The notes: a model not told the origin generated them from the sequence alone. A stretch of 24,000 nucleotides of DNA from Salinarchaeum laminariae (GCF_023204835.1 NZ_CP096270.1:2472907-2496906), one strand, 5' to 3'. Positions 8,641 to 24,000 are shown, counted from the stretch's first letter. Numbers and translations are program-made.

Positions 8641-11001
8641 ATGGAAGTCGCCGAGGTTCTGCCGAACTTCGCTGACGCGTTCGCGTTCGAGGAGTTCAAC
8701 GCGATGCAGCGAGCGGCGATTCCGGGCATCCTCGAGACCGATCACAACCTCGTCGCGAGCGCGCCGACGGCCAGCGGCAAGACCGCGATCGCAGAGCTGG
8801 CGATCTGCAAGACGCTCGACGCTGGCGGCACGGCGCTGTTCGTCGCGCCGATGCGGGCGCTCACCAACGAGAAAGAACGTGACTGGGAACGCTTCGAGGA
8901 GCTTGGCTACTCGGTCTACGTCGTCACGGGCGAGCGGGATCTGAACCCCCGGCGCGCTCGCCGCGCGGACATCCTCGTCATGACGCCCGAGAAGGTCGAC
9001 TCCGCGACGCGCAAACACGACACCCGCCGGTACGACTTCGTCACCGACGTCGAAACCGTCGTCGTCGACGAGGTGCACCTGCTCGATTCCGAACGCCGCG
9101 GGAGCGCACTCGAAGTCACAGTCTCGCGCCTGCGCCGGCTCTGCGATCCACGGATCGTCGCGCTCTCCGCGACGATGCCGAACGTCGAGGAGGTCGCGGA
9201 GTGGCTCGATGCACCCGACGCGACCACCTTTGACTTCGACGAGGATCACCGTCCCGTCGAACTCAATGCCGACGTCAAGACCTACAGCCACGGCGAGAAC
9301 TCCTTCGCGGACAAATACCGGCGACTCTACCGCGCGCTCGACCTCGCACAGCCACATCTCGAAGAGGACGGACAGTCGCTCGTGTTCGTCGCCTCTCGCC
9401 AGGACACCCAGCGGGCGGCCGCCAAGGCACGCGACGAGCTGGCAGAGCGCGACGTCCGGATCGGCGCGCGAGGGGATTACGATTTCCACACCGAAACCGA
9501 ACGACTCGAGGACGACGAACTCCGGCAGGGCGTCCTCGACGGCGTCGCCTACCACCACGCCGGACTCTCGAAGTCCGACCGGGACCTGATCGAGCAGTGG
9601 TTCCGTGAGGGCCAGATCGAGCTACTGTTCTCGACATCGACGCTGGCGTGGGGCGTCAATCTTCCCGCACGCTGCGTTATCATCCGGGACACGAAATACC
9701 ACGACCCGCTGGAGGGCGAAGTCGAGATGAGCCCGCTCGACGTCCTCCAGATGCTCGGCCGCGCAGGCCGTCCAGGCTACGACGACGTCGGGTACGGCTG
9801 GGTCGTCACGGACCGCTCCGACGCCGACCGCTACAGACGATTGCTCCGCGAGGGCACTGAGATCCACTCGAACCTCTCCAACGACCTCCCCGAACACCTG
9901 CTCGCAGAGGTCTGCGTCGGAACGATCGAATCCCGAGCGGACGCACTGGAGTGGCTCGACACGACCTTCTACGCCGTCCGAGCCGACGGGGTCGCAGCCG
10001 ACGACGGGGCGGACGACTCGAGCGAGGCACTCGCCGGAGAGATCGACGATACGCTCGCTTCGCTCGCGGGGGACGGATTCCTCGACCTCGACGGGCCAGG
10101 CGGGACCGATGGCGTTGCCCCCACTGCGCTGGGCCGCCTCGCCTCCCAGTTCTACCTACGCCTCGAGACGGCCCGTGGGTTCCACGACCTGGCGACCCGC
10201 GATCACGTCGACGAGGCCGGGATTCTCCGGGCGGTCGCAACCGCCGTCGAGTTCGACGACGTCGCCGCACGGAGCGACGAGGCCGACGCCATCGACGCAG
10301 TGCTCGGCGAGCGAGGGACGGATCTCCCCGACGGCCAGCGGAAGATTCTCGCGATCCTCCGGGCGGCAGTCTCCGGCGCTACCCCAGCTTCGCTCCGCTC
10401 GGACGCGTGGATCATTCGCCAGAACGCACTCCGGATGCTCGCTGCACTCGGTGCCGTCCTCGAGGAGTTCGCTGGCCCCGAAGCGGCAAACGAGTGCTGT
10501 CGGCTGGAGGCCCGGATCGAACACGGCGTCGGTCCAGACGCCGCGGCGATGACCGCCATCGACGGCGTCGGAGAGGGGCGCGCCCAGTCGCTGGCCAAGG
10601 CCGGCTTCGACTCGCCGGTAGACGTGGCTGGCGCATCGCCAACGACGATCGCCGCCGCGGGCGTCGGTGACGGCGTCGCCGAGCGAATCGTCGAAGCCGC
10701 GGCGGCGCTTCCACGAATCGAAATCGAGTGGGGGGAGCTCCCGAGTTCGATCGCTGCGGGCGAGCGGACCTTCTGCGAGGCGACGATCCGCAACCGTGGC
10801 GGCGGAGCACAGGCGGGTGTTCGCGTGACCGTCAACGACGTGGAGATGACGGCCGACGAGACCTACCTCAGCGACGCAACGACGGTCCCGGTCGCCTGCT
10901 TCGGTGCCGACGCCAACGAGCTCGAACTCCGGATCCAGGTCGTCTTCCCGGAACTCCCCATCGACCCGATCGTCGAAACGCGAACCGTCTCCGTCGAGTG
11001 A
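8641..11001 (+). CDS. Ski2-like superfamily-2 helicase (Hel308/Brr2/ASCC3-like) with Sec63-like C-terminal module
   Basis: 786 aa. It has the 'FNAMQ' Q-motif, motif I 'APTASGKT', motif II 'VVDEVHLL' (DEVH box), motif III 'SATMPN' and motif VI 'QMLGRAGRPGYD'. A helical/HhH region follows ('IDGVGEGRAQSLAKAGFDSPVDVA'). The final ~90 aa look like a beta-sandwich (IEIEWGELP...VRVTVNDVEM...LELRIQVVFP). Confidence 0.85.
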   Translation: MEVAEVLPNFADAFAFEEFNAMQRAAIPGILETDHNLVASAPTASGKTAIAELAICKTLDAGGTALFVAPMRALTNEKERDWERFEELGYSVYVVTGERDLNPRRARRADILVMTPEKVDSATRKHDTRRYDFVTDVETVVVDEVHLLDSERRGSALEVTVSRLRRLCDPRIVALSATMPNVEEVAEWLDAPDATTFDFDEDHRPVELNADVKTYSHGENSFADKYRRLYRALDLAQPHLEEDGQSLVFVASRQDTQRAAAKARDELAERDVRIGARGDYDFHTETERLEDDELRQGVLDGVAYHHAGLSKSDRDLIEQWFREGQIELLFSTSTLAWGVNLPARCVIIRDTKYHDPLEGEVEMSPLDVLQMLGRAGRPGYDDVGYGWVVTDRSDADRYRRLLREGTEIHSNLSNDLPEHLLAEVCVGTIESRADALEWLDTTFYAVRADGVAADDGADDSSEALAGEIDDTLASLAGDGFLDLDGPGGTDGVAPTALGRLASQFYLRLETARGFHDLATRDHVDEAGILRAVATAVEFDDVAARSDEADAIDAVLGERGTDLPDGQRKILAILRAAVSGATPASLRSDAWIIRQNALRMLAALGAVLEEFAGPEAANECCRLEARIEHGVGPDAAAMTAIDGVGEGRAQSLAKAGFDSPVDVAGASPTTIAAAGVGDGVAERIVEAAAALPRIEIEWGELPSSIAAGERTFCEATIRNRGGGAQAGVRVTVNDVEMTADETYLSDATTVPVACFGADANELELRIQVVFPELPIDPIVETRTVSVE

Positions 11002-11170
11002 GGCCCAAGGCGAGTCCCACTCCGTGGCCAGACTGTCGTCCACACCGGTTCAGATCGAGCAGTTTCCTCGGAGTTTGGCGCGCTCGAATCGGGCGCGATA
11101 CCGTGCCCTGAACCCTCCCCCGCTCGCCGCCACCAGACGCCCTTAGTGTCCAGACGGCGTTCGAAGTATC

Positions 11171-11842
11171 ATGAGCGATCCCCACGGAGAAGCGGACGTC
11201 GTGACGGCGGGCGCGGACCTCGAGGACGCGTCTATCGCCGTCGTAGCGGTCCACGGTCGCGGTGCCACGGCACGCAGCGTCGTCCAACTGGTCGAACAGG
11301 CGGCCAAGCGCAGTGGCGCCGACGAGCCCGCAGTTCTCGCCCCACAGGCGACCAGAAACACCTGGTACCCGAACTCGTTTCTGGCGCCGATCGACGCCAA
11401 CGAGCCCCACCTCACGAGCGCCCTGGACCTGCTCGGACGCGTCGTCGATCGTGCAGCCGACGCCGTCGGCCGCGACCACGTGATCCTCCTCGGGTTCTCA
11501 CAGGGCGCCTGCCTCTCCAGCGAGTTCCTCGCTCGGAACCCCGCCAGCTACGGTGGGCTGGCTGGACTCTCTGGCGGACGAATCGGTCCGGAGGGTATCG
11601 AGTGGGACGAAGAAGCGACGCTGGCGGAGGCCAACGCCGATCTCGACGACACGCCGATCTTCCTCGGCTGTAGCGACGTCGATCCGCACATCCCCGAGGA
11701 TCGCGTCCACGCGACCGCGGAGTCCCTGAACACCCTCGGTGGGGACGTAACCGTCGAGATCTACCTGGGAATGGGCCATACGGTCAACGATGACGAACTC
11801 GACCACGTCGGACGACTGCTGAAGGGCGCTGGTGCCGACTGA
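11171..11842 (+). CDS. alpha/beta hydrolase, phospholipase/carboxylesterase family
   Basis: 223 aa. It has the nucleophile elbow 'GFSQGA', a later 'CSDVDPHIP' (Asp) and 'GMGHTV' (His). This order is typical of the Abhydrolase_2 / carboxylesterase fold. Confidence 0.75.
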   Translation: MSDPHGEADVVTAGADLEDASIAVVAVHGRGATARSVVQLVEQAAKRSGADEPAVLAPQATRNTWYPNSFLAPIDANEPHLTSALDLLGRVVDRAADAVGRDHVILLGFSQGACLSSEFLARNPASYGGLAGLSGGRIGPEGIEWDEEATLAEANADLDDTPIFLGCSDVDPHIPEDRVHATAESLNTLGGDVTVEIYLGMGHTVNDDELDHVGRLLKGAGAD

Positions 11843-12039
11843 GGGCACGCATGATCTCGTTACTCTCGACACGGCTGGAGTTACCGCTCACGTCGTGGAG
11901 GATCGCAGGCTGCGCGGAGATGGACGATCGGCTCGTTACCGAGGATCCCGTCGTGCGGAGCGACTGGAATGGTGGCGTTGTCCCAGGGTTCGGGACTACT
12001 ATTTAACGGCGCCGAACCCCCCGATCCAGACGAAACCCG

Positions 12040-12864
12040 ATGTCGACAGCAACCAATCCCATGGCGGCGGCGTTCGAACTGCAACGACGGTCGATCGAGT
12101 TCGGGGAACGACTGTTCGAGCAGCTGCTCACGGCACAGCGAGACACCATGCAGACGACGATGCACAATGGATTCGCGATGCAGCGAGAAGCCCAGGAGCA
12201 GGGAGCCGAACTCGCTCGGCGACTCTTTCACGCGCAGACGGACGCGGTCCAGGCCACGGTGAACGGCGACGAGTTCCGCGCGATCGTCGACCGCCAGTTC
12301 GAAGCCTACGACGACGAGGGCGCTGCAGCGATGGAGGCGTTCGAAAACGCGTTCCTCGACGCGTTCGAGGACCTCACCGCTCAGCAGCGCGATCTTGTCG
12401 TCGAATCAGTCGATTCGGCCTTAGACGCCCACGCTACCGTCGAAAAGCAGGCCATCGAAAGCGCCGGTCGGACTCGTGACGTCGCCAAGACAGCCCAGCG
12501 GCAGGGCGAGGAGTTTGCATCAGAGACGGTGACAGCAACCGAACAGGGGCTGGAGGCTGCGGACGAGGGGGGCGCCGTCCATGGACAGACCCGCGGTGCG
12601 CAGCAGGCCAGAACGACGCATCACGATGACGCACAGAACGACAGCGGTCACGCACGACAGGAAGGAGGGCATACGCAACAAGAGACGATCGAGCAGCTCG
12701 AAGTGATCGACGGACTCGGCCCGACGTACGCTGAACGGCTCTACGAGGGCGGCATTCACTCGATGACGGAACTCGCAGACGCAGCTGCGGAGACGATCGC
12801 GGACGAAGCTGACGTCGCGACGAGCCGAGCCGAGGAGTGGATCGAGGTGGCCCAGTCCACGTAG
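12040..12864 (+). CDS. hypothetical helical protein with C-terminal helix-hairpin-helix (DUF4332-like) motif
   Basis: 274 aa with an ATG start. The N-terminal half is helical and Q/E/A-rich, followed by a His/Gln-rich linker (TTHHDDAQNDSGHARQEGGHTQQE). The C-terminal 'VIDGLGPTYAERLYEGGIHSMTELA' is an HhH-type pattern. A TATTTAA box lies at 12000-12006, 34-40 nt upstream. Confidence 0.6.
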   Translation: MSTATNPMAAAFELQRRSIEFGERLFEQLLTAQRDTMQTTMHNGFAMQREAQEQGAELARRLFHAQTDAVQATVNGDEFRAIVDRQFEAYDDEGAAAMEAFENAFLDAFEDLTAQQRDLVVESVDSALDAHATVEKQAIESAGRTRDVAKTAQRQGEEFASETVTATEQGLEAADEGGAVHGQTRGAQQARTTHHDDAQNDSGHARQEGGHTQQETIEQLEVIDGLGPTYAERLYEGGIHSMTELADAAAETIADEADVATSRAEEWIEVAQST

Positions 12865-12886
12865 TGACTGGCGCAGGCGGCAGCCG

Positions 12887-13543
12887 TTACTGATCGCCGC
12901 CGAACTCGCGGTCGTTTTGAATCTTCGAGGCCTGCGGACCGCTCTGACCCTGGTACTTCGAGCCACGCTCCTTGCCGTAGGGCCGTTCCGCCGCCGAGCT
13001 GAGTTTGGTGAAGGTCAGCTGGGAGATTCGCATGTCCGGCGTCAATGCCACGGGTGCAGTGCCGAGATTCGACAGTTCGAGCGTTATCTGGCCCTCGTAT
13101 CCAGGATCGACGATGCCCGCGGTCGCGTGGACGACGATCGCAAGGCGCCCGAGAGAGGACCGGCCCTCGACGTGTGCGATGAGGTCGTCGGGGATCGCGA
13201 CCCGCTCCTTCGTCGTCGCGAGCACGAAATCTCCCGGGTGTAAAATGAACTCGTCGTCGATGGTATCGGTCTGCTCGTCGGTCTCGTCGGCGACGTCCTG
13301 GAGCGTTTTCTGGCCCGATCCGCTGGAGCCGGGAATCGTCGTTCGCTCGGTGTAGTCCGCGGCCACCGATCCCTGATCCGGTCGGATACAGGGAATGTTC
13401 GACTGCCGGAAGGTGAGGAACTCACGGCCCAGGCGCATGTCGACGCTCGCCGGCTGAATCTGCATGTCGGGGTCGTCGAGCGGCTCGATCAGGAGTTCGC
13501 CGTCCTGTAGCCGACGACGGATGTCCCGGTCCGAGAGGATCAT
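12887..13543 (-). CDS. dcd: dCTP deaminase
   Basis: The ATG at 13543 gives [24 protein letters not shown]...[10 protein letters not shown] and '...[36 protein letters not shown]', the dCTP deaminase/dUTPase-fold signatures. The track start at 13642 adds 33 non-homologous aa. An acidic insertion ([27 protein letters not shown]) sits in the middle. Confidence 0.88.
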
Positions 13544-13634
13544 ACCTGTCGTCTGCGCGGCGGTCGGCGTAAATGGTGCGGTCTGGCGCGGTTTTGGCCA
13601 ACCGTCGGCGGCGGCTGGATCGAGTGGCCTGGCA

Positions 13635-14501
13635 CTATACACTCATCAAGAGTGTGATCACCCAGAAGACGGCGGCGACGACCCCGGCCTTCTGTCTGTC
13701 GAGATCGTGCAGCCCGCGCAATCCACCGTACCAGACTGCGGCCTGCCAGGTCGTCCCGACGACCGCCAACACGAGGAGGATCGGCTCGACCGATGCCAGT
13801 GCGGCCTCGATCGCCGCTTGCGTCGTTTCTGGATCCTCTAACGTTAGATCCTCGGATCGGAGTGCGTACGCTATCACGGCCACCGTCGGGAGCGTCGCAA
13901 CCGCAGACGGAACCCCGCTCCAGGCTGCGATCGCGAACGTGTCGCTCATGTCAGCTACGCCATCGGCGACCTTCGCGCCGACGTGCAACAGAATGGCTCC
14001 GACGGCCCACGCGAGCATCCAGCCGATGAAGGCGTAGACGGCGACCTCGTTGAATGCCTCCCGAACCATCGGCCCAGGGTCGCGCTCGACCGTCGCAGGT
14101 TCGTCACACGGATCGTGGCCCTCCGGTCCACTTGGGAACGATCCGTCGTTTATCTCACAGAACTGATCGCCCGGGTAGGCGGGGTTATCGACCGTGACGG
14201 TCTCGGAAAACTGCGAGGCGAACTCCACGCCGAGCGCGTAGACCGCGATCGCCAGCAGGAGAGCCGACCCAACCGCGACGCCGACCGCGACCGCGGGGGA
14301 ACGGGCCCACCTGGGCGCGTCCGAGAAGAACGTGACCGGACGGTGGAACGGCGTCGGCGGAAGCACGTTTCCAGCAATCACGGCGCGCACCAAGTGTTTG
14401 GTGCTTCTCGTTGTCGTCGGAATGAAGTGGGTCAGAGTGGAAAGGATCGGATCCTGGGGGTCGTAGCCACCCGTCTGAATTCGCCCTGTCCCTATCGCCA
14501 A
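13635..14501 (-). CDS. Yip1-domain-like polytopic membrane protein
   Basis: 288-aa ORF whose only upstream start is the TTG at 14501, so the start is uncertain. A TM helix follows '[12 protein letters not shown]', then a soluble loop and about four C-terminal TM helices. This matches the haloarchaeal Yip1-family proteins I recognise. Confidence 0.55.
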
Positions 14502-14890
14502 GCCGACGATCCGCCACCGGTGACGCTGTCGTTCGCTTTCGTCAGCGACGAAGATGTCGGCGACGACGGGCTACGGGCGGTGGCGATGCGAAGACCCTCC
14601 GGAACGCCCAGATTCCGACTGTCGAGTGTGCGCTGAGCACCGACACCGTCCACGCCGTGGACGAGTACACGACAATCGACGCACTCGTCGGCAACGGCAC
14701 GATCAACGCGAGACTCCCGGTGATCTGGAACGCCGCGGTCGGCATGGTCTATCCCGTTTGCCGCGTCAAGCTGAGTTCGTTCTGACTACCTGGGTGAGGG
14801 GGTAGAGTGTGGCCGAAGCTGTACAGTGGGCCTACGGGGTGCAGAATGATGGAGGGGTAGAACGGGTTCGGTGTGTAGATTACCACAATC

Positions 14891-14914
14891 TTGGAACTGA
14901 CGCACAATATTAAG
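14891..14914 (+). promoter_or_regulatory. 24-nt conserved motif copy 1 (TTGGAACTGACGCACAATATTAAG), 31 nt upstream of the TusA-like ATG
   Basis: 19 of 24 positions are identical to 21770-21793. It contains the CGCACAA core and an A/T-rich 3' half at TATA-box distance from the ATG. Confidence 0.5.
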
Positions 14915-14944
14915 AGCCCGGACGTCGTAGCTGCACCTGTGACA

Positions 14945-15187
14945 ATGCCGAGTCCAGACATCGATCCGGCGACGATCGTGGATGCACGGGGAGCAAGCTG
15001 CCCGGGACCCCTGATGGACCTGATTGGGGCGATCCGTGGCATCGACTCGGAAGCCGTCGTCAAGCTTCTGAGCGACAACGAGCAGTCGCTGACCGACGTG
15101 CCGGAGTGGGCCGAAGAGTCCGGCAACGAGGTGCTCGAGGTCGAGGGGGCCGAGGACCACTACGCGATCTACGTACAGAAAGCATGA
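14945..15187 (+). CDS. TusA-like sulfur-carrier protein (SirA/YedF/YeeD family)
   Basis: The ATG at 14945 gives MPSPDIDPATIVDARGASCPGPLMDLIGAIRG..., with the CPxP active-site motif. The track start at 14891 is a TTG. The stop TGA (15185-15187) overlaps the next ATG (15184-15186) as ATGA. Confidence 0.8.
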   Translation: MPSPDIDPATIVDARGASCPGPLMDLIGAIRGIDSEAVVKLLSDNEQSLTDVPEWAEESGNEVLEVEGAEDHYAIYVQKA

Positions 15188-16329
15188 CCGAGCACGTCGT
15201 CATCGTCGGCGCGGGGACCGGGGGGACCGTCCTCGCCAACGACCTCGCCGATCGACTCGAACGGGAGATCGACGCTGGTGACGTCGAGGTCACCCTCTAC
15301 AACGACGATCCCGACCACGTCTACAAACCGGTCTGGCTGTACGTCCCCTTCGGACTCCGCGAACCCGAGGACGGCCGGCGGGCCCTCTCGGACCTCGTGG
15401 ACGACCGGATCGACCTCCGGATCGACCGGATCACCGACCTGGACAGCGACGCGAAAGAACTGCGGACTCGCGACGGCGCCGGAACGGTGCGCTACGACCA
15501 CCTCGTGCTCGCGACCGGCTCGACGCTCGCGCCAGAGACCGTGCCGGGGCTCGCGGAGGCCGGGCACGACTTCTACAGCGAGGACGGGGCCGAGGCGCTC
15601 CGCGAGGACCTCCTCGCCTTCGAGGAGGGGCGGGTCGTCCTCAGCGTCGTCGGGTCGCCACACATGTGCCCAGCGGCGCCCCTGGAGTTCGCGTTCATGG
15701 TCGACGACTGGTTCCGGAAGCGTGGGCTGCGCGACGACGTCGAGGTCGTCTACACCTACCCGATCCAGCGCGTCCACGGGAACCCGCACATCGCCGAGTG
15801 GGCCGAGCCGATCATGAAAGAGCGCGGGATCGAGGTGCACACGTTCGTCAACGCCGAGGAGATCGATCCCGACGCGGAGACCATCGAGACGATGGAGGGG
15901 GACTCCATCGACTACGACCTTCTCGTCACGATCCCACCCCATGCAGGCGTGGACCTGATCGCCGAGGCGGGCCTCGGCGACGAGGGTTGGGTCGACGTCG
16001 ACAGCCACACGCTCGAAGCCACGGCCGCCGAGGACGTCTACGCACTCGGCGACACCGCCGACACTGGCGTCCCGAAAGCGGGCAGCGTTGCCCACTACCA
16101 GGCCGGCGTCGTCGCCCAGCGGATCGCCAGCGACGTCAGGGGCCGCCCGGCGACGGCGACCTACGACGGCAAGACGCTGTGCTTCATCGAGACCGGCATG
16201 GACGAGGCCAGCTTCGTCGAGTTCGACTACGAGACCCCGCCGTCGCCCGCGCCGCCCTCGACGGCGCTGCACTGGTCGAAGCTGTCGTACAACGAGTCCT
16301 ACTGGCTCACCGCGCGGGGGCTACTGTAG
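15184..16329 (+). CDS. sulfide:quinone oxidoreductase-like FAD-dependent oxidoreductase
   Basis: The ATG at 15184 gives MTEHVVIVGAGTGGTVLAN (FAD GxGxxG). 'HVYKPVWLYVPFG', 'PHMCPAAPLEFAF' and 'KTLCFIETG' place two Cys where SQR-type flavoproteins carry redox cysteines. 'YALGDTA' is the second FAD motif. The track start at 15106 is a GTG inside the TusA gene. Confidence 0.72.
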   Translation: MTEHVVIVGAGTGGTVLANDLADRLEREIDAGDVEVTLYNDDPDHVYKPVWLYVPFGLREPEDGRRALSDLVDDRIDLRIDRITDLDSDAKELRTRDGAGTVRYDHLVLATGSTLAPETVPGLAEAGHDFYSEDGAEALREDLLAFEEGRVVLSVVGSPHMCPAAPLEFAFMVDDWFRKRGLRDDVEVVYTYPIQRVHGNPHIAEWAEPIMKERGIEVHTFVNAEEIDPDAETIETMEGDSIDYDLLVTIPPHAGVDLIAEAGLGDEGWVDVDSHTLEATAAEDVYALGDTADTGVPKAGSVAHYQAGVVAQRIASDVRGRPATATYDGKTLCFIETGMDEASFVEFDYETPPSPAPPSTALHWSKLSYNESYWLTARGLL

Positions 16330-16332
16330 ATC

Positions 16333-17001
16333 ATGACCGAGAACGATCCAGAAATCGCCGACGGCGGCGTCGCGGAAGGCGCCGAGGCAGGCCAAAGCGA
16401 CGCCCTCGAAGCCGCGATCGCGGAGAACCCCGAGGCGGTCGCCGAGTTCGTCCGCCGGCTCGACGCCGTCAACGAACTGCTCGACGTCGTCGCGCTCGGC
16501 GAGAGCGCGATGACCGACGAGATGGTCACCGAACTCGCCGGAACGGGCGCCACGCTCGCGGAGTCCGCCGACGGCCTCGCGACTGAGGAAACCGTCGCAC
16601 TCGCCGAAACCGTCGGCGACAACGGCGAGGAACTCGGGGACGCGCTGGAGACAATGCTCGAACTCCAGCGGGCGGGCACGCTCGACGACCTCGCGGAGCT
16701 GGCGTCGATCGCCTCGCTGGCCACCGCCGCGCTCGACGACGAGATGGTCCGCTCGCTCGCGGCGATGGGCGGATCGCTGGGCGAGGTCGCCGACACGGCT
16801 GCGGCGCCGGACACCAGAGACGGCATCGAGACGATGCTCGAGGGGATCGGCGAGGCCCAGCGCGCGGAGCCCGAACCCGTCGGCGCGATCGGGATGGCGA
16901 GGGCGATGCGCGACCCCGAAGTGAAGTACGGGCTGGGCTACGTGCTAGCCATGGCACGAGCGATCGGTCGAGCACGCGCAGCGGACGCATCGTCGCAATG
17001 A
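16333..17001 (+). CDS. DUF1641-domain protein (frequent partner of SQR/NDH-2-like flavoproteins)
   Basis: The ORF starts 3 nt after the SQR stop. It is an acidic helical protein ending in 'GAIGMARAMRDPEVKYGLGYVLAMARAIG', the DUF1641 C-terminal signature as I recall it. Its stop overlaps the next ATG (ATGA at 16998-17001). Confidence 0.72.
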   Translation: MTENDPEIADGGVAEGAEAGQSDALEAAIAENPEAVAEFVRRLDAVNELLDVVALGESAMTDEMVTELAGTGATLAESADGLATEETVALAETVGDNGEELGDALETMLELQRAGTLDDLAELASIASLATAALDDEMVRSLAAMGGSLGEVADTAAAPDTRDGIETMLEGIGEAQRAEPEPVGAIGMARAMRDPEVKYGLGYVLAMARAIGRARAADASSQ

Positions 17002-18149
17002 CGTCGCGAGATCCACGCGGGACGGGCGAGGCGATGACGCCGCTGGAGTTGCGCGCCGACGTCCCCGCGCTGCAGGATGGCGCGTACTTCAACTTCGGCG
17101 CGCACGGCCCGAGCCCGCGGTTCGTCGTCGAGGCAGCCGAAGCTTTCATCGAGAGCCACGAGTACGAGTCGCCGATCGTCGACGACCCCTACGAGACGGC
17201 GTTCGACACGTTCGAGATGGTCCGCGAGACGGTCGCCGACTTCGTCGGTGCCGAGGCCGAGGAGATCGCGCTCACGGAGAGTACCACCGCCGGCATCAAC
17301 GCGATCGCCGGGGCGATCGACTGGGAGCCATGGGACGTGGTGGTCCGCACCGACCTCGAACACCCCGCCGGGATCCTCGCGTGGCAGCGCCTCGAACGCG
17401 AGGGCGTCGAGGTCCGGGTCGTGGAGACCACCGACGGCCGCGTCGATCCCGAGGAGTTCGCCGAGGCCGTCGAGGGCGCGGACCTCGCCTGCTTCAGCGC
17501 GCTCACCTGGACCCACGGCACCCGCCTGCCGGTCGCGGAGCTGGTCGACATCGCCAACGACGCCGGCGCGTTCACGCTGGTCGACGCGGTGCAGGTCCCC
17601 GGCCAGACCGAACTGGACGTTTCGGAGTGGGGCGCCGACGCCGTCGCAGCCGCTGGCCACAAGTGGCTCCTCGGACTCTGGGGCGGCGGCTTCCTCTACG
17701 TCGACCGCGAGGTCGCCGAGGAGCTTGAACCCCGGACCGTCGGCTACCGGAGCGTCGAGAAGCCCACCGCCGAGCCGTTCGCGTTCGAACCCGGCGCGAA
17801 GCGATTCGAGGTCGGCTCCGCGAACCCGGCGTCACACGTCGCATTGGCGGAAGCGATCGAAGCGATCGAAGAGGTCGGCGTGGATCGAATGGAAGAGCGG
17901 ACGCTCGACCTGGCGGGTCGACTTGCCGACGGGGTGCCGGAGGAGCAGCTATTGAGTCCTGCCGAGCCGGAGTCAGGGTTGGTGACGATCGACGTTCCCG
18001 ATCCCGAGGCGACGGTGGAGCGGCTCGCGGACGAGGGGATCGTCGTTCGACCGCTGCCATTTCCGGACGCTATTCGGGCGTCGGTTCACGCAGTGAACAC
18101 GGCGGAGGAGGTTGATCGGTTGTTGGGCGGGCTGGAGGATGAGTACTAA
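16998..18149 (+). CDS. class-V aminotransferase-fold PLP enzyme (cysteine-desulfurase-like but lacking the catalytic Cys)
   Basis: 383 aa. It has 'TESTTAGIN', 'LVDAVQ', the PLP lysine in 'AAGHKWLLG' and a C-terminal 'IRASVHAVNTAEEVDRL', as in NifS/SufS/CsdA-type enzymes. There is no Cys anywhere C-terminal of the PLP Lys; the only Cys is in 'DLACFSAL'. The alternative start M13 is at 17034. Confidence 0.78.
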   Translation: MTSRDPRGTGEAMTPLELRADVPALQDGAYFNFGAHGPSPRFVVEAAEAFIESHEYESPIVDDPYETAFDTFEMVRETVADFVGAEAEEIALTESTTAGINAIAGAIDWEPWDVVVRTDLEHPAGILAWQRLEREGVEVRVVETTDGRVDPEEFAEAVEGADLACFSALTWTHGTRLPVAELVDIANDAGAFTLVDAVQVPGQTELDVSEWGADAVAAAGHKWLLGLWGGGFLYVDREVAEELEPRTVGYRSVEKPTAEPFAFEPGAKRFEVGSANPASHVALAEAIEAIEEVGVDRMEERTLDLAGRLADGVPEEQLLSPAEPESGLVTIDVPDPEATVERLADEGIVVRPLPFPDAIRASVHAVNTAEEVDRLLGGLEDEY

Positions 18150-18167
18150 GCGCTTTCGCGCCGTTTT
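18150..18167 (+). terminator. short GC hairpin (GCGC-TTTC-GCGC) followed by a TTTT run directly after the stop codon
   Basis: Seen directly as 'taa gcgctttcgcgc cg tttt ag'. Oligo-T tracts are the usual archaeal termination signal. The hairpin is short, so confidence is modest. Confidence 0.35.
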
Positions 18168-18422
18168 AGTGGCTCTAATTGGCTTTCAGTCGCTGACGGT
18201 CCTACCGGATCGTACTGAATCGCAGGTGCGTATCTAACACGCCATCCGTTTTCATATGAGGTATGTCGGTGAATCCTTTTGGAGGGGAAACGAGGTCAGA
18301 TCTTCTCATGAGTATTGCTCATTCCTCGCCAACCAGTTTGCTTCAACTGTTTCCTGTTGGGAGGGGGTCGATTGGCTTCAAGGGATCAGATTAATGTATT
18401 TCAAAGGGCCAATCATACTGAA

Positions 18423-19187
18423 ATGCTCCCCTTCGACGTTACCTGGGGTCAGATTTCAATAGCTAGCGTAGCGGGAGCTATTCTGATATTTGCTGTGAAT
18501 AAACGATGGGATCTTTGGTCGCGTAGAAGAGAACGTAAACGTCAACAAACTCTCAAATGGCACCGGGAGGTGCAAGAGCTGTTTGCTGAGGTGATCTCAG
18601 TGGGCCGTCGTATGCGAACGTCTCGGACACGCGACGAAGAACTGATTCAAGAACTGATCCCAACAACTATTAAACTCGATTCGAAGGTAAATTCTCTGCC
18701 TATTTGGGTGCGATTGAGGGTGAGTAGCGAGGTTCAAAATCGTGTCATCGCAGCAGCCGGGATGGCGTACCATTTGGCCCATCTGCCCCAACCAGACCGA
18801 AATGAAGATTCGGTCGCTGGAATGATGTATCATTTATACAGGGTTGCAGACTTGGTGGACGCTGACACGGATGTCGAGGTTGGAGAGCTGATTGAACTGA
18901 TTGGTGGATTAGATCCTTCCGGTACTCCTGATCTGTCGGAAGAGAAAGCCGATCAGATTTTGCAAGAATTCGAAGACGAATCACAGCGGCGAATGGAAAC
19001 TTGGGAAGAGATGACTGTTGACGAATTGATGGACCTCCCATGGGAGAAAGTCGACCAAATTCTTTCCGAGCGCGATCGAGTGAAGTTGATTAGACAATGT
19101 ATTGAAGCCTATTACGAACAGGCACTAATTGAAAAACCACGGGAAGCTCGGAACGCGATACAGGAATCGGAGCAAGCATATGCGTGA
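18423..19187 (+). CDS. orphan N-terminally membrane-anchored helical protein
   Basis: The ATG at 18423 gives MLPFDVTWGQISIASVAGAILIFAVNKRWDLWSRRRERKRQ... This is one TM helix followed by a positive patch and then about 200 aa of acidic helical sequence. The track start at 18315 is a TTG. A TATA-like 'ttaatgtatttc' lies at 18391-18402. I recognise no family. Confidence 0.55.
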   Translation: MLPFDVTWGQISIASVAGAILIFAVNKRWDLWSRRRERKRQQTLKWHREVQELFAEVISVGRRMRTSRTRDEELIQELIPTTIKLDSKVNSLPIWVRLRVSSEVQNRVIAAAGMAYHLAHLPQPDRNEDSVAGMMYHLYRVADLVDADTDVEVGELIELIGGLDPSGTPDLSEEKADQILQEFEDESQRRMETWEEMTVDELMDLPWEKVDQILSERDRVKLIRQCIEAYYEQALIEKPREARNAIQESEQAYA

Positions 19188-19448
19188 ACTGAATCGGTGA
19201 CACTAGTCCTTTCGTATATGGTTTCTCAATGCCCGCCACTCCTCAACGAGATTCCTCGTACGATCAAGTAGAATCTCCGAGGATTTGATCAGAATGGATG
19301 AATTGAGGATCAGCACGAATATTCGCCAACTCCAAAGGCAGATGATCAATCAGGTTTGACTGATTCATTTGTTGGACTCGGTTTTTGAAGTTTCAGAGGC
19401 CATCAGGGCCGATAATCTAGTAAAATGCCACGGTTTCCCTGGCATTGT

Positions 19449-20603
19449 TCAGGAAGCGAAGTCTATTTCTTGATCTGAATAGTTGAGAGCTGTGTCAAGA
19501 GTCATCGACAAGAATAGTAATGATATTGTAGCGATATTTTCATCGAAGAACGCGACGGGATCGCCATGCATGATCGCATTTCTATGGGCATAAAATGATT
19601 CAAGATTATTGATAAAATTTCCAGTGGAAACCCCATACCATTCAACGTGAAGTTCAGCCAGTTTGTTACGTTTGGTGTCCCATTTATAAACTGGGTCTCC
19701 AAATCGGTTCATGTAATCAGGTGATACATTTTCCTGCTCACAAAGCCAATGCATTATGCCGTCCTGAACACTGATAAAGCTAAAAACCGGTGTTAAAAAC
19801 CTTCCATCCCTGAACTCTTCGATTCCCCTTTCTAACCGGTTGTAATAAGGGTCTAATGGATGTTCCTGAATATTAGCCATGCCATTTAGTACTTCGTCAA
19901 GATACTGAGTCCCAGCAGCCTGAGCAACAGAATTTAATTGGATAATTTCTGGATCGTAATTAGAAGGTTCTTCAAAGTTAGATATCCCCTCTTCAATGGC
20001 CTCCCGGACCTCTCTGGCAAACTCTTGAAGTTGTTGAATAAGCGGTCTAAACTGATCTATCATGTCTTGAAACATCGACGTCAAGTTGGGCGCGACAGGT
20101 TGGATTGATTCAGCAACTTGCCTACTAACCTGATTTACGGTTTCATGAATGGCATCGACCGACTGTACAACACCCTCTGGATATTTTACGCCTTCAAATA
20201 TCGAGACCGATCTCAAATCTATCTCCCGATTTTCTTCTGCCAGTGTCATCCCCACAAATTCACGTATTGACATCCTGACCTCCTCGGCTGAAGATTCTGA
20301 TTCATCCACAATTTCGTCGAAAGAATTCTGGCCGCCATAGAACTGGACTCCACTAAATATTGCCTCCCAGGTAACTCTAGCTGTTGGATAATTCACTAAT
20401 TTCACATATTGGATAACAAGCTCCCTTGTGTCAGAACGACTAATATCGAACTCTCTGGCAGCCTCTGATAGAGTCGAATCACGGTAAAACTCTCCAACCT
20501 CCTTGATTTGCTCGCATTGGTCGAACGAAATTTCATCGCGGAGCTCCTCCCTCTTCTCAACCTCCTCTTCAACAATCTCACGTAAACGACTCACATCCGA
20601 CAT
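19449..20603 (-). CDS. orphan protein with N-terminal HTH-like segment and C-terminal HEPN-like (R-x4-H) domain
   Basis: 384 aa with an ATG at 20603. Residues ~43-66, 'STLSEAAREFDISRSDTRELVIQY', look like a helix-turn-helix. The C-terminal ~130 aa are helical and carry 'FYAHRNAIMHGD'. R341 is codon 19581-19583 and H346 is codon 19566-19568, both checked on the DNA. A final hydrophobic helix follows. This is the RNxxxH(G) arrangement of HEPN RNase domains. Confidence 0.6.
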   Translation of the reverse strand: MSDVSRLREIVEEEVEKREELRDEISFDQCEQIKEVGEFYRDSTLSEAAREFDISRSDTRELVIQYVKLVNYPTARVTWEAIFSGVQFYGGQNSFDEIVDESESSAEEVRMSIREFVGMTLAEENREIDLRSVSIFEGVKYPEGVVQSVDAIHETVNQVSRQVAESIQPVAPNLTSMFQDMIDQFRPLIQQLQEFAREVREAIEEGISNFEEPSNYDPEIIQLNSVAQAAGTQYLDEVLNGMANIQEHPLDPYYNRLERGIEEFRDGRFLTPVFSFISVQDGIMHWLCEQENVSPDYMNRFGDPVYKWDTKRNKLAELHVEWYGVSTGNFINNLESFYAHRNAIMHGDPVAFFDENIATISLLFLSMTLDTALNYSDQEIDFAS

Positions 20604-20627
20604 CGTCCCGAAAACGCACTGTGAAGG

Positions 20628-20633
20628 TTAAAA
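20628..20633 (-). promoter_or_regulatory. TATA-like TTTTAA box 25-30 nt upstream of the HEPN-like gene ATG
   Basis: The reverse strand reads 'ggattttaaccttcacagtgcgttttcgggacgATG'. The spacing fits a leaderless archaeal transcript. Confidence 0.35.
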
Positions 20634-20862
20634 TCCAATGGGTCCCTGTAGAACTAATTGAGGCCATTGTCATTGCTATTTACTATTCAAATAATAATCA
20701 TAAAGCTCCTTCTCAGCGAGTATCACAAATCCGTCCAAATGACATCGGTCTTCAACGGCGATCGCAAGACGGCTGCATCTGATCAGCAGGGGCGCCGCTC
20801 GCGGGCCAAATCGCCGAGAGAAGTAAACGGTGGGGCTGGTCAGGCAACGTGTACAGCGCGAT

Positions 20863-21498
20863 TCAGACCAGCAACTGCACGTCCGACTCGGCCATGTGCT
20901 CGAGCGCGGTCGCCGCGCCGACTCCCACTGTGACGTCGTCGTAGAAATCGTCCTCGTCGTAGTCCATCAGCTCGATCGTCATCTGGCAGGCCTGCATCTC
21001 GACGCCCTGCTCGAGGGACACTTCGATGAGTTCCTCGATCGTCGCGGTGTTGTTGTCGTCGATCTTCTTCGCCATCATCTTCGTCGTGACCCGGTCCATG
21101 CCCGGGAGCGCGGCGAGCGCGTTCGGGACGGGCATGTTCGGGTTGCCGACGGAGGACAGCTGGAGGTTCGAGGACTTCTCCTCGTGGAGGATGTCCAGGC
21201 CCCAGAACGTGTGGAAGACCACGACGTCCCAGCCGAAGGCGGCCGCGGTGCTCGCGAGGATCAGCGGCGGGTACGCCATGTCGAGCGTGCCCTTCGTCGC
21301 GATGATCGTCATCTTCATCGGCCCGTCGTCGACCTCGCGCTCGAGCGTCGTGACCGTATCCTCCAGTTCCTCGATGCGGGCCTGTAGCTCCGCCTCGGTC
21401 TGTGGGACGTCCGCCCCGTCCGCCGTCGGGGCCTCGTCGCCACTCGCGGCGGCCTTCTCCTCGGGCGTCTCCTCCGTCTCGGCTGCGTCGGTGCTCAT
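20863..21498 (-). CDS. DsrE/DsrF-like sulfur-relay protein (COG2210-type) with a 60-aa acidic coiled-coil N-terminal extension
   Basis: The core 'MKMTIIATKGTLDMAYPPLILASTAAAFGWDVVVFHTFWGLDIL' and 'VEMQACQMTIELM' (conserved Cys) match DsrE-like/COG2210 proteins. The ATG at 21498 directly abuts the TusA stop (21499-21501). The extension is GC3-rich. Confidence 0.78.
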   Translation of the reverse strand: MSTDAAETEETPEEKAAASGDEAPTADGADVPQTEAELQARIEELEDTVTTLEREVDDGPMKMTIIATKGTLDMAYPPLILASTAAAFGWDVVVFHTFWGLDILHEEKSSNLQLSSVGNPNMPVPNALAALPGMDRVTTKMMAKKIDDNNTATIEELIEVSLEQGVEMQACQMTIELMDYDEDDFYDDVTVGVGAATALEHMAESDVQLLV

Positions 21499-21744
21499 CT
21501 ATGCGGTCTTCTCCACGTAGTGTTTGTAGAGGTCGCCGTCCTCGACCTGGTCGAGGAGCGAGACGCCCTTTGTCCCACTCGCCCACCCGTCGATGTCGCT
21601 CATGCTGCCGGAGTCCGTCGAGAGTACCTCGAGGACCTCACCCTCGGCGAGGTCGTCGATCGCGGACTTCGTCTTGACGACCGGCATTGGACACGATGCT
21701 CCCTTCACGTCGAGCGTCTCAGTAACGTCGATTGCGTCTGTCAT
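21499..21744 (-). CDS. TusA-like sulfur-carrier protein (second copy)
   Basis: The ATG at 21744 gives MTDAIDVTETLDVKGASCPMPVVKTKSAIDDL..., with the CPxP motif. The track start at 21792 is a TTG with an AT-rich, atypical N-terminus. Confidence 0.8.
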   Translation of the reverse strand: MTDAIDVTETLDVKGASCPMPVVKTKSAIDDLAEGEVLEVLSTDSGSMSDIDGWASGTKGVSLLDQVEDGDLYKHYVEKTA

Positions 21745-21769
21745 CGGTGAATCACTCCGTTGGTTTGTA

Positions 21770-21793
21770 TTGGAGTTAACGCACAATACCAAG
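21770..21793 (+). promoter_or_regulatory. 24-nt conserved motif copy 2 (TTGGAGTTAACGCACAATACCAAG), 26 nt upstream of the second TusA ATG, on the opposite strand relative to that gene
   Basis: 19 of 24 positions are identical to 14891-14914. It lies in the 250-bp divergent intergenic region between the TusA/DsrE and rhodanese-PDO operons. Confidence 0.5.
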
Positions 21794-21818
21794 GCCGATC
21801 ACTAAAGGATATCGGTTC

Positions 21819-21839
21819 TTGTGCGATCTGCGAACTACT
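21819..21839 (+). promoter_or_regulatory. repeat B: TTGTGCGAT-CTG-CGAACTACT
   Basis: It is identical to 21926-21946 at 18 of 21 positions; only the central 3 nt differ. Its TTGTGCG core is the reverse complement of the CGCACAA core of the 24-nt motif. Confidence 0.5.
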
Positions 21840-21925
21840 GCCCCGTACGAGATATCTAATAATTCTTGCGTATGGGCGTAGTGGCTCATCTGCAACGATC
21901 TCGCCGCGTCTCGCCGATTGCTGTA

Positions 21926-21946
21926 TTGTGCGATTGCCGAACTACT
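21926..21946 (+). promoter_or_regulatory. repeat C: TTGTGCGAT-TGC-CGAACTACT
   Basis: This is a direct repeat of 21819-21839, 107 bp downstream. It ends about 49 nt upstream of the rhodanese-PDO ATG. Confidence 0.5.
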
Positions 21947-21994
21947 ATGCAAACTCTTATGTGCTCGCCTCTGGAACGTGGAGGTACACGACAC

Positions 21995-23242
21995 ATGAAC
22001 GCTGACGACTTCCCCACGCCCGACGTGGCGGTCGAATCGGTCGAACCGGATCAGCTCAAGGCACGCGTCGACGCCGGTGAGGACCTCACCATTCTCGACG
22101 CCCGGATGAGCTCGGATTACGCCGAGTGGCGCATCGACGGCGACGGCGTCGAGTCGATCAACGTCCCCTACTTCGAGTTCCTCGAGGACGAGATCGACGA
22201 GACCGTCTTCGACCAGCTCCCCGAGGACGAGGAGATCGTCGCCCTGTGTGCGAAGGGCGGCGCCAGCGAGTACGTCGCGGGCCGTCTCATCGAGGCAGGC
22301 TACGACGTCGTCCACCTGGAGGACGGGATGAACGGCTGGGCGCGCATCTACGAGCAAGTCGAGGTCAACGACTACGACGGCGCGGGCACGCTCTACCAGT
22401 ACCAGCGGCCCTCCTCGGGCTGTCTCGGCTACCTCCTCGTCGAGGGCGACGAGGCCGCGGTGATCGATCCCCTGCGGGCGTTCACCGATCGATACCTCGA
22501 GGACGCCGAGGCGTTCGGCGCCGACCTCCTGTACGCGATCGACACCCACATTCACGCGGATCACATTTCGGGGGTCCGCGAACTCCACGAGTTCGCGGGC
22601 TCGTCAGGAGCGGAGCGAACTGACGGTGTTCGTGATCTGGACGACGAAGGAGTCGAGGGCGTCATCCCCGCCGCAGCGGTCGACCGCGGCGTCGCGTACG
22701 CCGACGACCTGACGCAGGCCGCGGACGGCGACGAGTTCGCCGTCGGCGACGCGACGATCGAGACGGTCTCCACGCCCGGCCACACGACCGGGATGACCTC
22801 CTACCTCGTCGACGACAGCCTGCTCGCGACCGGCGACGGCCTGTTCATCGAGAGCGTCGCGCGCCCCGACCTCGAAGAGGGCGACGACGGTGCGCCCGAC
22901 GCTGCCCGGATGCTCTACGAGTCGCTCCAGGAGCGCGTCCTCACGCTGCCCGACGAGACGCTCGTCGGCGGCGCGCACTTCAGCGACGCGGCAGTGCCGG
23001 CCGACGACGGGACCTACACCGCTCCGATCGGTGACCTGAAAGAGCGCATGGACGCGCTGTCGATGGACGAGGCGGAGTTCGTGGAGCTGATCCTCTCGGA
23101 CATGCCGCCCCGTCCCGCGAACTACGAGTCGATCATCGCGACGAACCTCGGCCAGCAAACCGTCGACGACGAGAAAGCGTTCACGCTCGAACTCGGTCCG
23201 AACAACTGCGCGGCGAGCCAGGAGTCGCTCGCGGGGGACTAA
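21995..23242 (+). CDS. rhodanese-domain / metallo-beta-lactamase-fold persulfide dioxygenase (ETHE1-like) fusion protein
   Basis: The ATG at 21995 is used; the track start at 21866 is a TTG. The N-terminal rhodanese has the active-site loop 'LCAKGGASEY'. The MBL domain has 'THIHADH', 'STPGHTTGM', 'ATGDGLF' and 'GGAHF', the metal ligands and spacing of ETHE1-type persulfide dioxygenases. Confidence 0.8.
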   Translation: MNADDFPTPDVAVESVEPDQLKARVDAGEDLTILDARMSSDYAEWRIDGDGVESINVPYFEFLEDEIDETVFDQLPEDEEIVALCAKGGASEYVAGRLIEAGYDVVHLEDGMNGWARIYEQVEVNDYDGAGTLYQYQRPSSGCLGYLLVEGDEAAVIDPLRAFTDRYLEDAEAFGADLLYAIDTHIHADHISGVRELHEFAGSSGAERTDGVRDLDDEGVEGVIPAAAVDRGVAYADDLTQAADGDEFAVGDATIETVSTPGHTTGMTSYLVDDSLLATGDGLFIESVARPDLEEGDDGAPDAARMLYESLQERVLTLPDETLVGGAHFSDAAVPADDGTYTAPIGDLKERMDALSMDEAEFVELILSDMPPRPANYESIIATNLGQQTVDDEKAFTLELGPNNCAASQESLAGD

Positions 23243-23253
23243 CTCGGTAGCCA

Positions 23254-23799
23254 ATGCTGTCCGACCTCATCACCGTAGCGCTTGCGGCCGACCTGGTTGC
23301 CGCCACCAGCGCGGTCGACCTCGCGCCCGCTTCGATCGCATCCGACCCGTTTCCCAACGGGATTAGTCGGTACGCCGTCGGCGGGTTGCTCGTCGGCCTC
23401 GGAACCGCGGTCATCTACCTCGGGACCGGCATCAGCGCCGGCGCGAGCACGTTCCTCGAGTCGACGCTGTCCTACGTGTCCGGCGAGTCTCGCTTCCAGC
23501 GGTACGTCGCCTCGCGTGACTGGCGGCTCCTGTTCACGGGTAGCATCGTCCTGGGCGCGGCCGTCTACGCCGTGACGATCCAGGGCGGCGCCTGGACGAC
23601 CGACGTCCACCCGTGGCGGCTCCTGGTCGGCGGCATCTTCGTCGGCGTGGGCACCCGCGTCGGCAAGGGCTGTACCTCCGGACACGGCGTCTGCGGGGTC
23701 GGCTCTGCGTCGAAGACGTCGATCGTTGGCGTCGTGACGTTCCTGCTGGTCGCGATCGTGACAGCGCAACTGGTCGCAGCAGCCGGGGTGACGCCGTAA
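23254..23799 (+). CDS. YeeE/YedE-family sulfur-compound (thiosulfate-type) transporter subunit
   Basis: A 181-aa polytopic membrane protein with the conserved 'GKGCTSGHGVCG' motif of the YeeE/YedE (PF04143) family. It starts 12 nt after the PDO stop. Confidence 0.8.
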   Translation: MLSDLITVALAADLVAATSAVDLAPASIASDPFPNGISRYAVGGLLVGLGTAVIYLGTGISAGASTFLESTLSYVSGESRFQRYVASRDWRLLFTGSIVLGAAVYAVTIQGGAWTTDVHPWRLLVGGIFVGVGTRVGKGCTSGHGVCGVGSASKTSIVGVVTFLLVAIVTAQLVAAAGVTP

Positions 23800-24000
23800 T
23801 GGCGGGGAGCGCCGCGCAGCGACACCCGCTGTTCGCGCCGCTGGTGATCCTCGGCGGCCTGATATTCGGCTTCGGGCTCGCCTACAGCCACATGGCGCGA
23901 CCGGAGGTCGTGCTCGACTTCCTCCAGTTCGAGGACTTCGGGCTGGTGTTCGTGATGTTCGGCGGAGCGGCCGTCACCGGCGTCACGTACTTCCTGGCTC
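23799..24000 (+). CDS. second YeeE/YedE-like membrane protein (partial, runs off the window)
   Basis: The ATG at 23799 overlaps the previous stop (TAATG). Hand translation gives MAGSAAQRHPLFAPLVILGGLIFGFGLAYSHMARPEVVLDFLQFEDFGLVFVMFGGAAVTG..., typical of the paired second YeeE-like subunit. Confidence 0.7.
   Translation, partial: MAGSAAQRHPLFAPLVILGGLIFGFGLAYSHMARPEVVLDFLQFEDFGLVFVMFGGAAVTGVTYFLA

Follow-up and report, generated by a model that had tools for sequence, protein, structure and literature searches.

The stretch of DNA considered here, referred to as the window, comprises 24,000 nucleotides of the Salinarchaeum laminariae genome (NZ_CP096270.1:2472907-2496906), and coordinates are counted from its first letter unless a relative is named. 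In its right-hand part an AT-rich islet of two genes lies where two sulfur-relay operons meet tail to tail, as proposed in the initial annotation and borne out by Pfam identification of the flanking genes. The left anchor of the islet is a class-V aminotransferase, a cysteine-desulfurase-like pyridoxal phosphate (PLP) enzyme (16998..18149, plus strand; Pfam Aminotran_5, E 2e-51). It is the last gene of a plus-strand operon that also encodes TusA (14891-15187), an SQR-like flavoprotein (15184-16329) and a DUF1641 protein (16333-17001), all recognised by Pfam. The right anchor is a DsrE-family sulfur-relay protein (20863..21498, minus strand; Pfam DrsE_2, E 3e-50), the last gene of a minus-strand TusA-DsrE operon (TusA at 21499-21747, minus strand, Pfam). 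The islet carries two open reading frames (ORFs): ORF A, of 254 amino acids (aa), at 18423..19187 on the plus strand, and ORF B, of 384 aa, at 19449..20603 on the minus strand. The two converge on a spacer of 261 bp (19188..19448, no strand; GC 0.448).

Each of the two genes has its own TATA-like box, as had been noted at the outset. The box of ORF A, ATTAAT (18390..18395, plus strand), spans positions -33..-28 relative to the ATG, the distance expected for a leaderless haloarchaeal promoter; that of ORF B, ATTTTAA (20628..20634, minus strand), spans -31..-25. A TATA-like box in the expected interval is seen at just 4.5% of random islet positions. Homologues of ORF A have conserved N-termini, which bears out its start at the ATG at 18423. 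Directly after the ORF B stop codon lies a putative terminator-like element (19422..19445, minus strand), with a 6-bp stem (ATGCCA/TGGCAT) followed by T4.

The islet departs strongly from its surroundings in composition. The sliding G+C fraction (GC) is 0.62-0.72 along the 24-kb window and falls to a trough of 0.40-0.50 at ~18200-20800. The core of the islet (18246-20765) has a GC of 0.449, about 8.8 standard deviations (sd) under the rest of the window, for which 326 sliding 2.52-kb windows outside the islet gave a mean of 0.645, an sd of 0.022 and a minimum of 0.608. ORF A has a GC of 0.485 and a GC at third codon positions (GC3) of 0.459, and ORF B has 0.429 and 0.410, respectively, vs. 0.648 ± 0.031 and 0.808 ± 0.073 in the 21 other ORFs of the window. 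The deviation of the islet thus amounts to about 5-9 sd for GC and GC3 together, with GC3 lying about 5 sd below the native genes. The compositional anomaly is real and far beyond local variation; the AT-rich segment amid GC-rich genes and the A/T-ending codons of both ORFs, which the initial annotation had described by eye, both withstood the quantitative check.

The extent first given for the islet, 18150-20750, proved to be close, although its bounds had to be corrected, as the outer bases align with intergenic DNA of relatives. Against the closest relative found, the metagenome locus L032, the variable segment is 18151-20817. The alignment with another relative, L041, extends some 80-95 bp beyond the PLP stop codon (to ~18232-18245), where a third locus, L033, is weakly similar; on the right side, residual similarity of L033 and L032 reaches back to ~20766. 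GC drops between 18210 and 18250 and rises between 20700 and 20780. Because of these flank alignments and GC steps, the foreign core was set at ~18246-20765 (no strand), a segment of 2.52 kb without counterpart in any syntenic relative. The roughly 95 bp after the PLP stop codon and the final ~50-100 bp before DsrE look native. The former (18151..18245, no strand; GC 0.54) is kept in the window and in L041 and L033 and is replaced in L032; the latter (20766..20862, no strand; GC 0.63) is the 3' flank of DsrE, within which BLAST homology with the sister L032 resumes at 20818.

A second, smaller GC dip (0.535) at 21600-22000 corresponds to the divergent intergenic and promoter region between the minus-strand TusA gene and a rhodanese/metallo-beta-lactamase fusion gene (21995-23242, plus strand, Pfam), beyond which a Sulf_transp protein is encoded (23254-23799, plus strand, Pfam). 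This dip is not an insertion, and it is conserved in the sister genome.

A variable slot between the PLP and DsrE genes

Loci with relatives of the PLP enzyme were taken from genome and metagenome collections, and all window proteins were mapped onto each of them. Among the matches listed there was no other Salinarchaeum genome, and the nearest sequences for comparison come from metagenome contigs. Both anchors, PLP and DsrE, keep their collinear order in 20 fetched loci (about 14 distinct). In 11 of these, 9 of them distinct, the junction is empty: the two genes converge directly over 75-453 bp of DNA with a GC of 0.62-0.76 (L009 from Natrinema, L015 from Halapricum, L042, L044-47 and L050-51). 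The direct adjacency that was to be looked for where the islet is absent was therefore found. In L033-35, whose PLP enzyme is 85% identical, the interval is 672 bp long and holds one GC-normal ORF of 98 aa.

The most telling comparison is with L032, which is identical to L058 (metagenome contigs of 340 and 641 kb). This sister is 97% identical to the window over 9003-18150 and 20818-24000, and its PLP and DsrE genes are 96% and 97.6% identical, respectively. The homology ends one base past the PLP stop codon and restarts 45 bp before the DsrE stop codon. Between these points the sister holds 2369 bp of unrelated DNA with a GC of 0.425. Its cargo (9318-11257 in L032) consists of a 448-aa AAA_15/AAA_21/DUF2813 ATPase (Pfam E 1e-23) and an overlapping gene for a 197-aa protein. 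The ATPase matches the PADLOC models PDC-M38A, AbiLi and AriA with E values of 1e-26 to 1e-27. No model was matched by the 197-aa partner, neither DUF4435/TOPRIM nor HNH.

Other relatives hold yet other genes. In L043 (PLP enzyme 77% identical), an interval of 2.9 kb encodes a MazE-type antitoxin and a PIN-domain protein along with two further ORFs of 278 and 121 aa, the latter a membrane ORF (7383-9652 in that locus). The cargo of L041 (PLP enzyme 93% identical) is different, except for the 121-aa gene, which it has in common with L043 at 90% nucleotide identity. The 3' part of the PLP gene also has two short matches (27-32 nt, with 94-96% identity) at the contig end of L041 (5237-5286); these may represent a partial duplication tied to the insertion, or an assembly artefact.

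Most relatives thus hold an empty junction, whereas in the Salinarchaeum lineage and a few others the cargo differs from genome to genome. This makes the slot a variable hotspot, for which four or five states at least were observed. Conserved anchors, an empty site, differing cargo in close relatives and deviant composition, that is, all the tested features of a hotspot islet flanked by core genes, were observed. No relative was found with the same two genes in the slot, which would have spoken against the initial annotation, and its suggestion that defence or toxin cargo gathers at this junction fits the ATPase module of L032, the MazE/PIN pair of L043 and the HEPN-like domain of ORF B described below.

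These comparisons also bear on whether the region might be native after all, merely AT-rich and fast-evolving, with lineage-specific orphan genes. Such a view could appeal to the lack of any mobility gene or repeat in the islet. However, it is refuted by the unrelated DNA that a 97%-identical sister holds at the same place, by the empty junction in more distant relatives and by homologues of both genes, 55-81% identical, in unrelated genomic contexts, and the GC3 deficit noted above stands against it as well. Its chance is negligible. The segment ~18246-20765 is horizontally acquired.

Two independent genes and their possible route of entry

ORF A and ORF B are independent single-gene units and not a system. 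In 10 other genomic contexts, a homologue of one always occurs without the other. The DNA similarity between ORF A and locus L040 covers 18382-19197, i.e., the gene together with 41 bp of its upstream promoter region, and that between ORF B and L038 covers 19467-20603, a single gene. It might still be supposed that the two form one defence or toxin-antitoxin system, a membrane partner with a HEPN toxin, as they are adjacent, AT-rich and unclassified, and HEPN toxins often have partners (PMC3710099). The genes are convergent, however, and make no operon; each is found alone in all 10 contexts; their families differ in size (5 homologues for ORF A vs. 27 for ORF B, or 129 by profile search), and their GC differs too. 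We regard a two-gene system as highly improbable. A type II toxin-antitoxin pair in particular was rejected, the genes being convergent, 261 bp apart and without co-occurrence elsewhere.

The homologues elsewhere lie in DNA of 45-53% GC. Their neighbours include tyrosine integrases (L004, L060 and L064, the last near an ORF A homologue), an HNH endonuclease (L004) and an ISH3 transposase (L060). The ORF A homologue in L007 is found directly downstream of a cluster of DUF7680, DUF1156-methylase and SNF2-helicase genes and is followed by a 1234-aa unknown protein, a defence-island-like context (487-7622 and 8001-12678 in L007). These contexts are the low-GC accessory pool of haloarchaea.

The islet itself shows none of the usual signatures of mobility, in agreement with the initial annotation, which had reported no integrase, transposase, tRNA or clear target-site duplication. 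ARAGORN detected no tRNA in the window. The islet has no non-coding RNA, and the sole Rfam match in the window is an unrelated C/D-box small RNA at 8393-8466. A and B are the only islet ORFs longer than 100 aa; neither is a recombinase, and no integrase or transposase was found with Pfam, PHROGs or PADLOC. The repeat search returned only chance-level repeats of 12-19 nt, with no terminal inverted repeats, target duplication or att sites; repeats flanking the islet are no longer than 14 nt at 86% identity, and inverted repeats are weak and internal. An integrative element (provirus or integrated plasmid) was rejected for want of a recombinase gene, att direct repeats and a tRNA target, and an insertion sequence or transposon for want of a transposase, terminal inverted repeats and a target-site duplication.

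The search against viruses and plasmids that had been suggested gave a mixed outcome. Comparison of the islet proteins by tblastn with 50,697 phage records yielded no match. Among 72,556 plasmids there was one weak match, to the C-terminal domain of ORF B only, on the megaplasmid of the halophilic archaeon DL31 (L060), where it lies between integrases and adjoins an ISH3 element. A halovirus or plasmid origin of the islet was rejected on these results.

A decayed provirus, plasmid or integrative element, from which integrase and att sites were deleted so that ORF A and ORF B are leftover genes, deserves separate consideration. The integrases and the ISH3 transposase near the homologues agree with it, as do the 45-53% GC of the surrounding DNA and the context in L001, where small unknown ORFs follow one another as is typical for mobile elements of haloarchaea. 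On the other hand, the window lacks an integrase, a tRNA, any att-like direct repeat and any further gene of an element; the segment is just 2.5 kb long, with two self-contained gene units; no phage record matches either protein; and the other cargoes of the slot, in L032 and L043, are likewise without integrases. A decayed element is therefore unlikely, though of the alternatives to the foreign islet in a hotspot slot it is the one to be taken most seriously.

The islet proteins and other features of the window

The sequence of ORF B agrees at 100% identity with that of a hypothetical protein from Salinarchaeum laminariae. A search of 5.8 billion clustered proteins gave 27 homologues, and an exhaustive profile search of 1.84 billion found 129 representative clusters of the family, which appears to be distributed mainly in haloarchaea and hypersaline metagenomes. 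The AlphaFold2 (AF2) model, built from a 27-sequence alignment, has a predicted local distance difference test (pLDDT) score of 80.5; it is confidently helical at aa 1-125 and ~190-376 and disordered at 150-183. The protein is thus predicted to consist of an N-terminal helical domain with a helix-turn-helix (HTH), a disordered linker and a C-terminal HEPN-like domain. In the N-terminal domain (aa 1-125; 20229..20603, minus strand; pLDDT 85-97) the predicted HTH lies at about aa 33-76. This domain gives a weak Sigma70_r4 match at aa 39-61, and the multi-HTH proteins P0270 and P0271 match profile positions 32-104.

The C-terminal domain (aa 246-384; 19452..19868, minus strand) was assigned from its helix pattern, conserved residues and sub-threshold HEPN matches. 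HEPN domains are characterised by an Rx4-6H motif in which N, D or H usually follows the R; the motif is located at the end of helix 3, an acidic residue is conserved in helix 2, and inserts between helices 2 and 3 are frequent (PMC3710099). In the model of ORF B, helices span 251-265 and 270-290, an insert follows at 291-327, the next helix at 328-345 has R-N-A-I-M at its end, and after a loop the last helix spans 355-378. R341 is followed by N and, at the proper distance, by H346; the codons of R341-N-A-I-M-H346, the predicted Rx4H catalytic motif with its invariant R and H, are at 19566..19583 (minus strand). D281, within the predicted helix 270-290, supplies the acidic residue of helix 2. 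Strongly conserved in the 27-sequence family alignment are P213, Y216, R256, S278, D281, G282, H340, R341, H346, G347, D354 and N356. In a 57-sequence alignment of the C-terminal domain, R341 and H346 are the sole invariant columns (H-R-N-x-I-M-H-G), and D281, invariant among the 27 sequences, is conserved in >90%.

Among the weak family matches of the C-terminal domains, the only families to turn up repeatedly are those of HEPN type. HEPN_Apea was matched by six family members with E values of 6e-4 to 0.1 (best 20.6 bits vs. a cut-off of 24.4), RiboL-PSP-HEPN with E 8e-4 (19.8 bits vs. 28.4) and Csm6_HEPN with 22.2 bits vs. 23.4; these sub-threshold Pfam matches come from divergent members of the family, and ORF B of the window itself gives none. 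Further weak matches are to a MAE_28990-like HEPN, to PADLOC RTasHEPN and to DUF3644, which overlaps a HEPN family (PMC3710099). Matches of ORF B to ApoLp-III, tape-measure and ZorA models in Pfam, PHROGs and PADLOC were discarded as coiled-coil noise, and its full-length profile retrieved only apolipoprotein and designed-helix noise from PDB sequences. Judging from sequence and model, the C-terminal domain is quite probably HEPN-like.

The HTH-like signals in the N-terminal domain, taken together with the absence of a HEPN model at threshold and of a fold match, could instead suggest that ORF B is a transcription regulator of the neighbouring sulfur-relay genes, with a C-terminal domain for ligand binding or dimerisation. 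Yet its homologues are found in unrelated, mostly mobilome contexts and never beside sulfur genes, relatives with the same sulfur cluster lack the ORF B gene, and the sole invariant residues are the R and H of RNxxxH at the canonical HEPN position. Such a regulatory role is very unlikely.

The family appears modular. Some members consist of the HEPN-like C-terminal domain alone (~230-270 aa). In about 47 representatives (among P0190-P0262) the N-terminal domain is not joined to the HEPN-like domain; instead, a long linker of low complexity connects it to a conserved hydrophobic or membrane segment at the C-terminus, which bears the motif (A/E)RxWF...YQI. Proteins of abortive infection and defence typically show such an exchange, in which a membrane-anchored module stands in for a nuclease while the N-terminal domain stays the same.

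ORF A is predicted to begin with a transmembrane helix, which is followed by a basic stretch and then by a cytoplasmic part that is helical. The helical region carries the invariant motifs W46-H-R, G61-R-R and A115-Y-H-L-A-H-x-P-x-P. A search of 5.8 billion clustered proteins gave no more than 5 homologues. The protein has no Pfam, PHROG, PADLOC or NCBIfam family and no fold match, and its AF2 model, from six sequences, is poor (pLDDT 64). NCBIfam gave no match for ORF B either, and the idea that the cargo is a recognised anti-virus system was dropped, as there was no convincing match in PADLOC or NCBIfam.

Some features elsewhere in the window may be recorded here. Upstream of the sulfur cluster, surrounded by housekeeping genes, is a heliorhodopsin gene (6711-7556, plus strand; Pfam Heliorhodopsin, E 2e-91). 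The C/D-box small RNA at 8393-8466 (minus strand) is sR-tMet (Rfam RF02163, 63 bits at a gathering score of 50) and is located just upstream of a Hel308-like helicase gene (8641-11001). A strong strand asymmetry at 4400-5200 (GC skew -0.35, AT skew -0.54, GC slightly low at 0.57-0.59) coincides with an ORF at 4463-5257 (minus strand), which has a weak DUF445 match just under the cut-off.

Interpretation and comparison with known systems

We favour the reading of the segment as a foreign islet in a hotspot slot, with a cargo that includes a HEPN-type ORF B, and give it a probability of about 0.72. Several results weigh against it. The gathering score is not attained for any of the HEPN models in Pfam; Foldseek searches of the full-length ORF B model against PDB and BFVD returned nothing significant, and a profile search of PDB sequences with the C-terminal domain returned nothing. 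The best PADLOC matches of ORF B are ZorA (E 4e-4, in a coiled, low-complexity stretch) and RTasHEPN (E 0.04), and ORF A has none. The identity between the window and L032 is lowest in the stretches that adjoin the slot, with 91.7% for 17697-17996 and 93.0% for 20818-21117 (vs. ~97% overall), but similar dips occur elsewhere, and this recombination-tract signature is suggestive rather than distinctive. The break points of the slot vary between lineages and define no att site, and the swap of cargo through flank homology is something that we only infer. Any function of ORF A is speculation. As no model reaches its threshold and the structure searches were negative, ORF B is placed in no named HEPN family and is best described, from its sequence, as a member of an unclassified HEPN-like family.

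The history of the slot may be pictured as follows. The ancestral state is the empty junction of roughly 75-450 bp, as still seen in relatives. As there is neither a recombinase nor a repeat signature, cargo most likely entered rarely, by illegitimate or otherwise unexplained insertion; the variation of break points between lineages disfavours a site-specific att mechanism. Later, cargo was most likely swapped between related genomes via homologous recombination in the conserved flanking genes, which would conform to the haloarchaeal pattern of conflicting islands at one locus. The two genes would be expressed as leaderless transcripts from their TATA-like boxes. ORF B may act as a stand-alone, metal-independent ribonuclease (RNase) of the HTH plus HEPN type, a toxin or abortive-infection protein that takes effect when activated: a cue from a nucleic acid or a virus would be sensed or bound by the N-terminal domain, and RNA would be cleaved at the Rx4H site, so that growth stops or the virus fails to replicate. 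For ORF A a part as membrane-anchored accessory protein may be supposed, and an accessory or defence role for it is speculation.

A more far-reaching proposal is tentative and, taken as a whole, rather doubtful. It holds that the PLP/DsrE junction could be an archaeal counterpart of the bacterial 'core defence hotspots', that ORF B could found a haloarchaeal family of single-protein abortive-infection RNases in which a shared HTH sensor is joined either to a HEPN-like nuclease or to a membrane anchor, and that ORF A could be a second, membrane-acting stand-alone defence gene.

Current concepts are left unchanged by these data: the islet, a small one in a recombination hotspot, is an ordinary, well-documented kind of feature, with a cargo family that is rare and unclassified. 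The slot is cleanly delimited and integrase-free and belongs to a haloarchaeal chromosome; related genomes and metagenomes showed four or five alternative cargoes at least. It could be a natural place to seek uncharacterised archaeal defence and toxin genes, and it could serve as a case for the swapping of small cassettes by recombination in conserved flanks. ORF B looks like an unclassified, modular HEPN branch and, if this is true, the immune and toxin repertoire of archaea would gain a new family. ORF A, with its five relatives, is even less common and wholly uncharacterised.

For the pan-genome of Halorubrum ezzemoulense, alternative islands that share their two anchoring core genes ('conflicting island pairs') are described as recombination hotspots (PMC11078007). 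The slot of S. laminariae resembles these islands and the bacterial core defence hotspots in its conserved syntenic anchors, the empty site in many relatives, the unrelated cargoes in close relatives, the G+C deviation and the enrichment of hypothetical and defence- or toxin-type genes. It differs in the very small size of the islet (2.5 kb, two genes) and, from many of the Halorubrum islands, in the lack of an integrase; its position within a sulfur-relay cluster, where two operons converge, is also different, and the comparators are metagenomic. The cargo of the sister L032, which is not that of the window, is like the two-gene modules of the ABC/OLD type (AbiL, PARIS AriA/AriB, Septu-like, PADLOC PDC-M38) in pairing an ATPase with an overlapping small partner; unlike in those modules, the 197-aa partner matches no model.

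ORF B itself differs from the named HEPN families in having no Pfam model at cut-off and no significant structural match, and in its family-specific motifs S-x-Q-D-G and F-D-x-N-I-A. At the same time, it is like the stand-alone HEPN RNases (Apea-like, RiboL-PSP, MAE_28990/18760-like and AbiU2/AbiV-like; Anantharaman et al. 2013, PMC3710099) in a predicted all-alpha make-up with the succession of helix 1, helix 2, insert, helix 3 and helix 4, in the R-N-x3-H where helix 3 ends and the acidic residue of helix 2, in its N-terminal HTH fusion and in the mobilome and defence neighbourhoods of its relatives.

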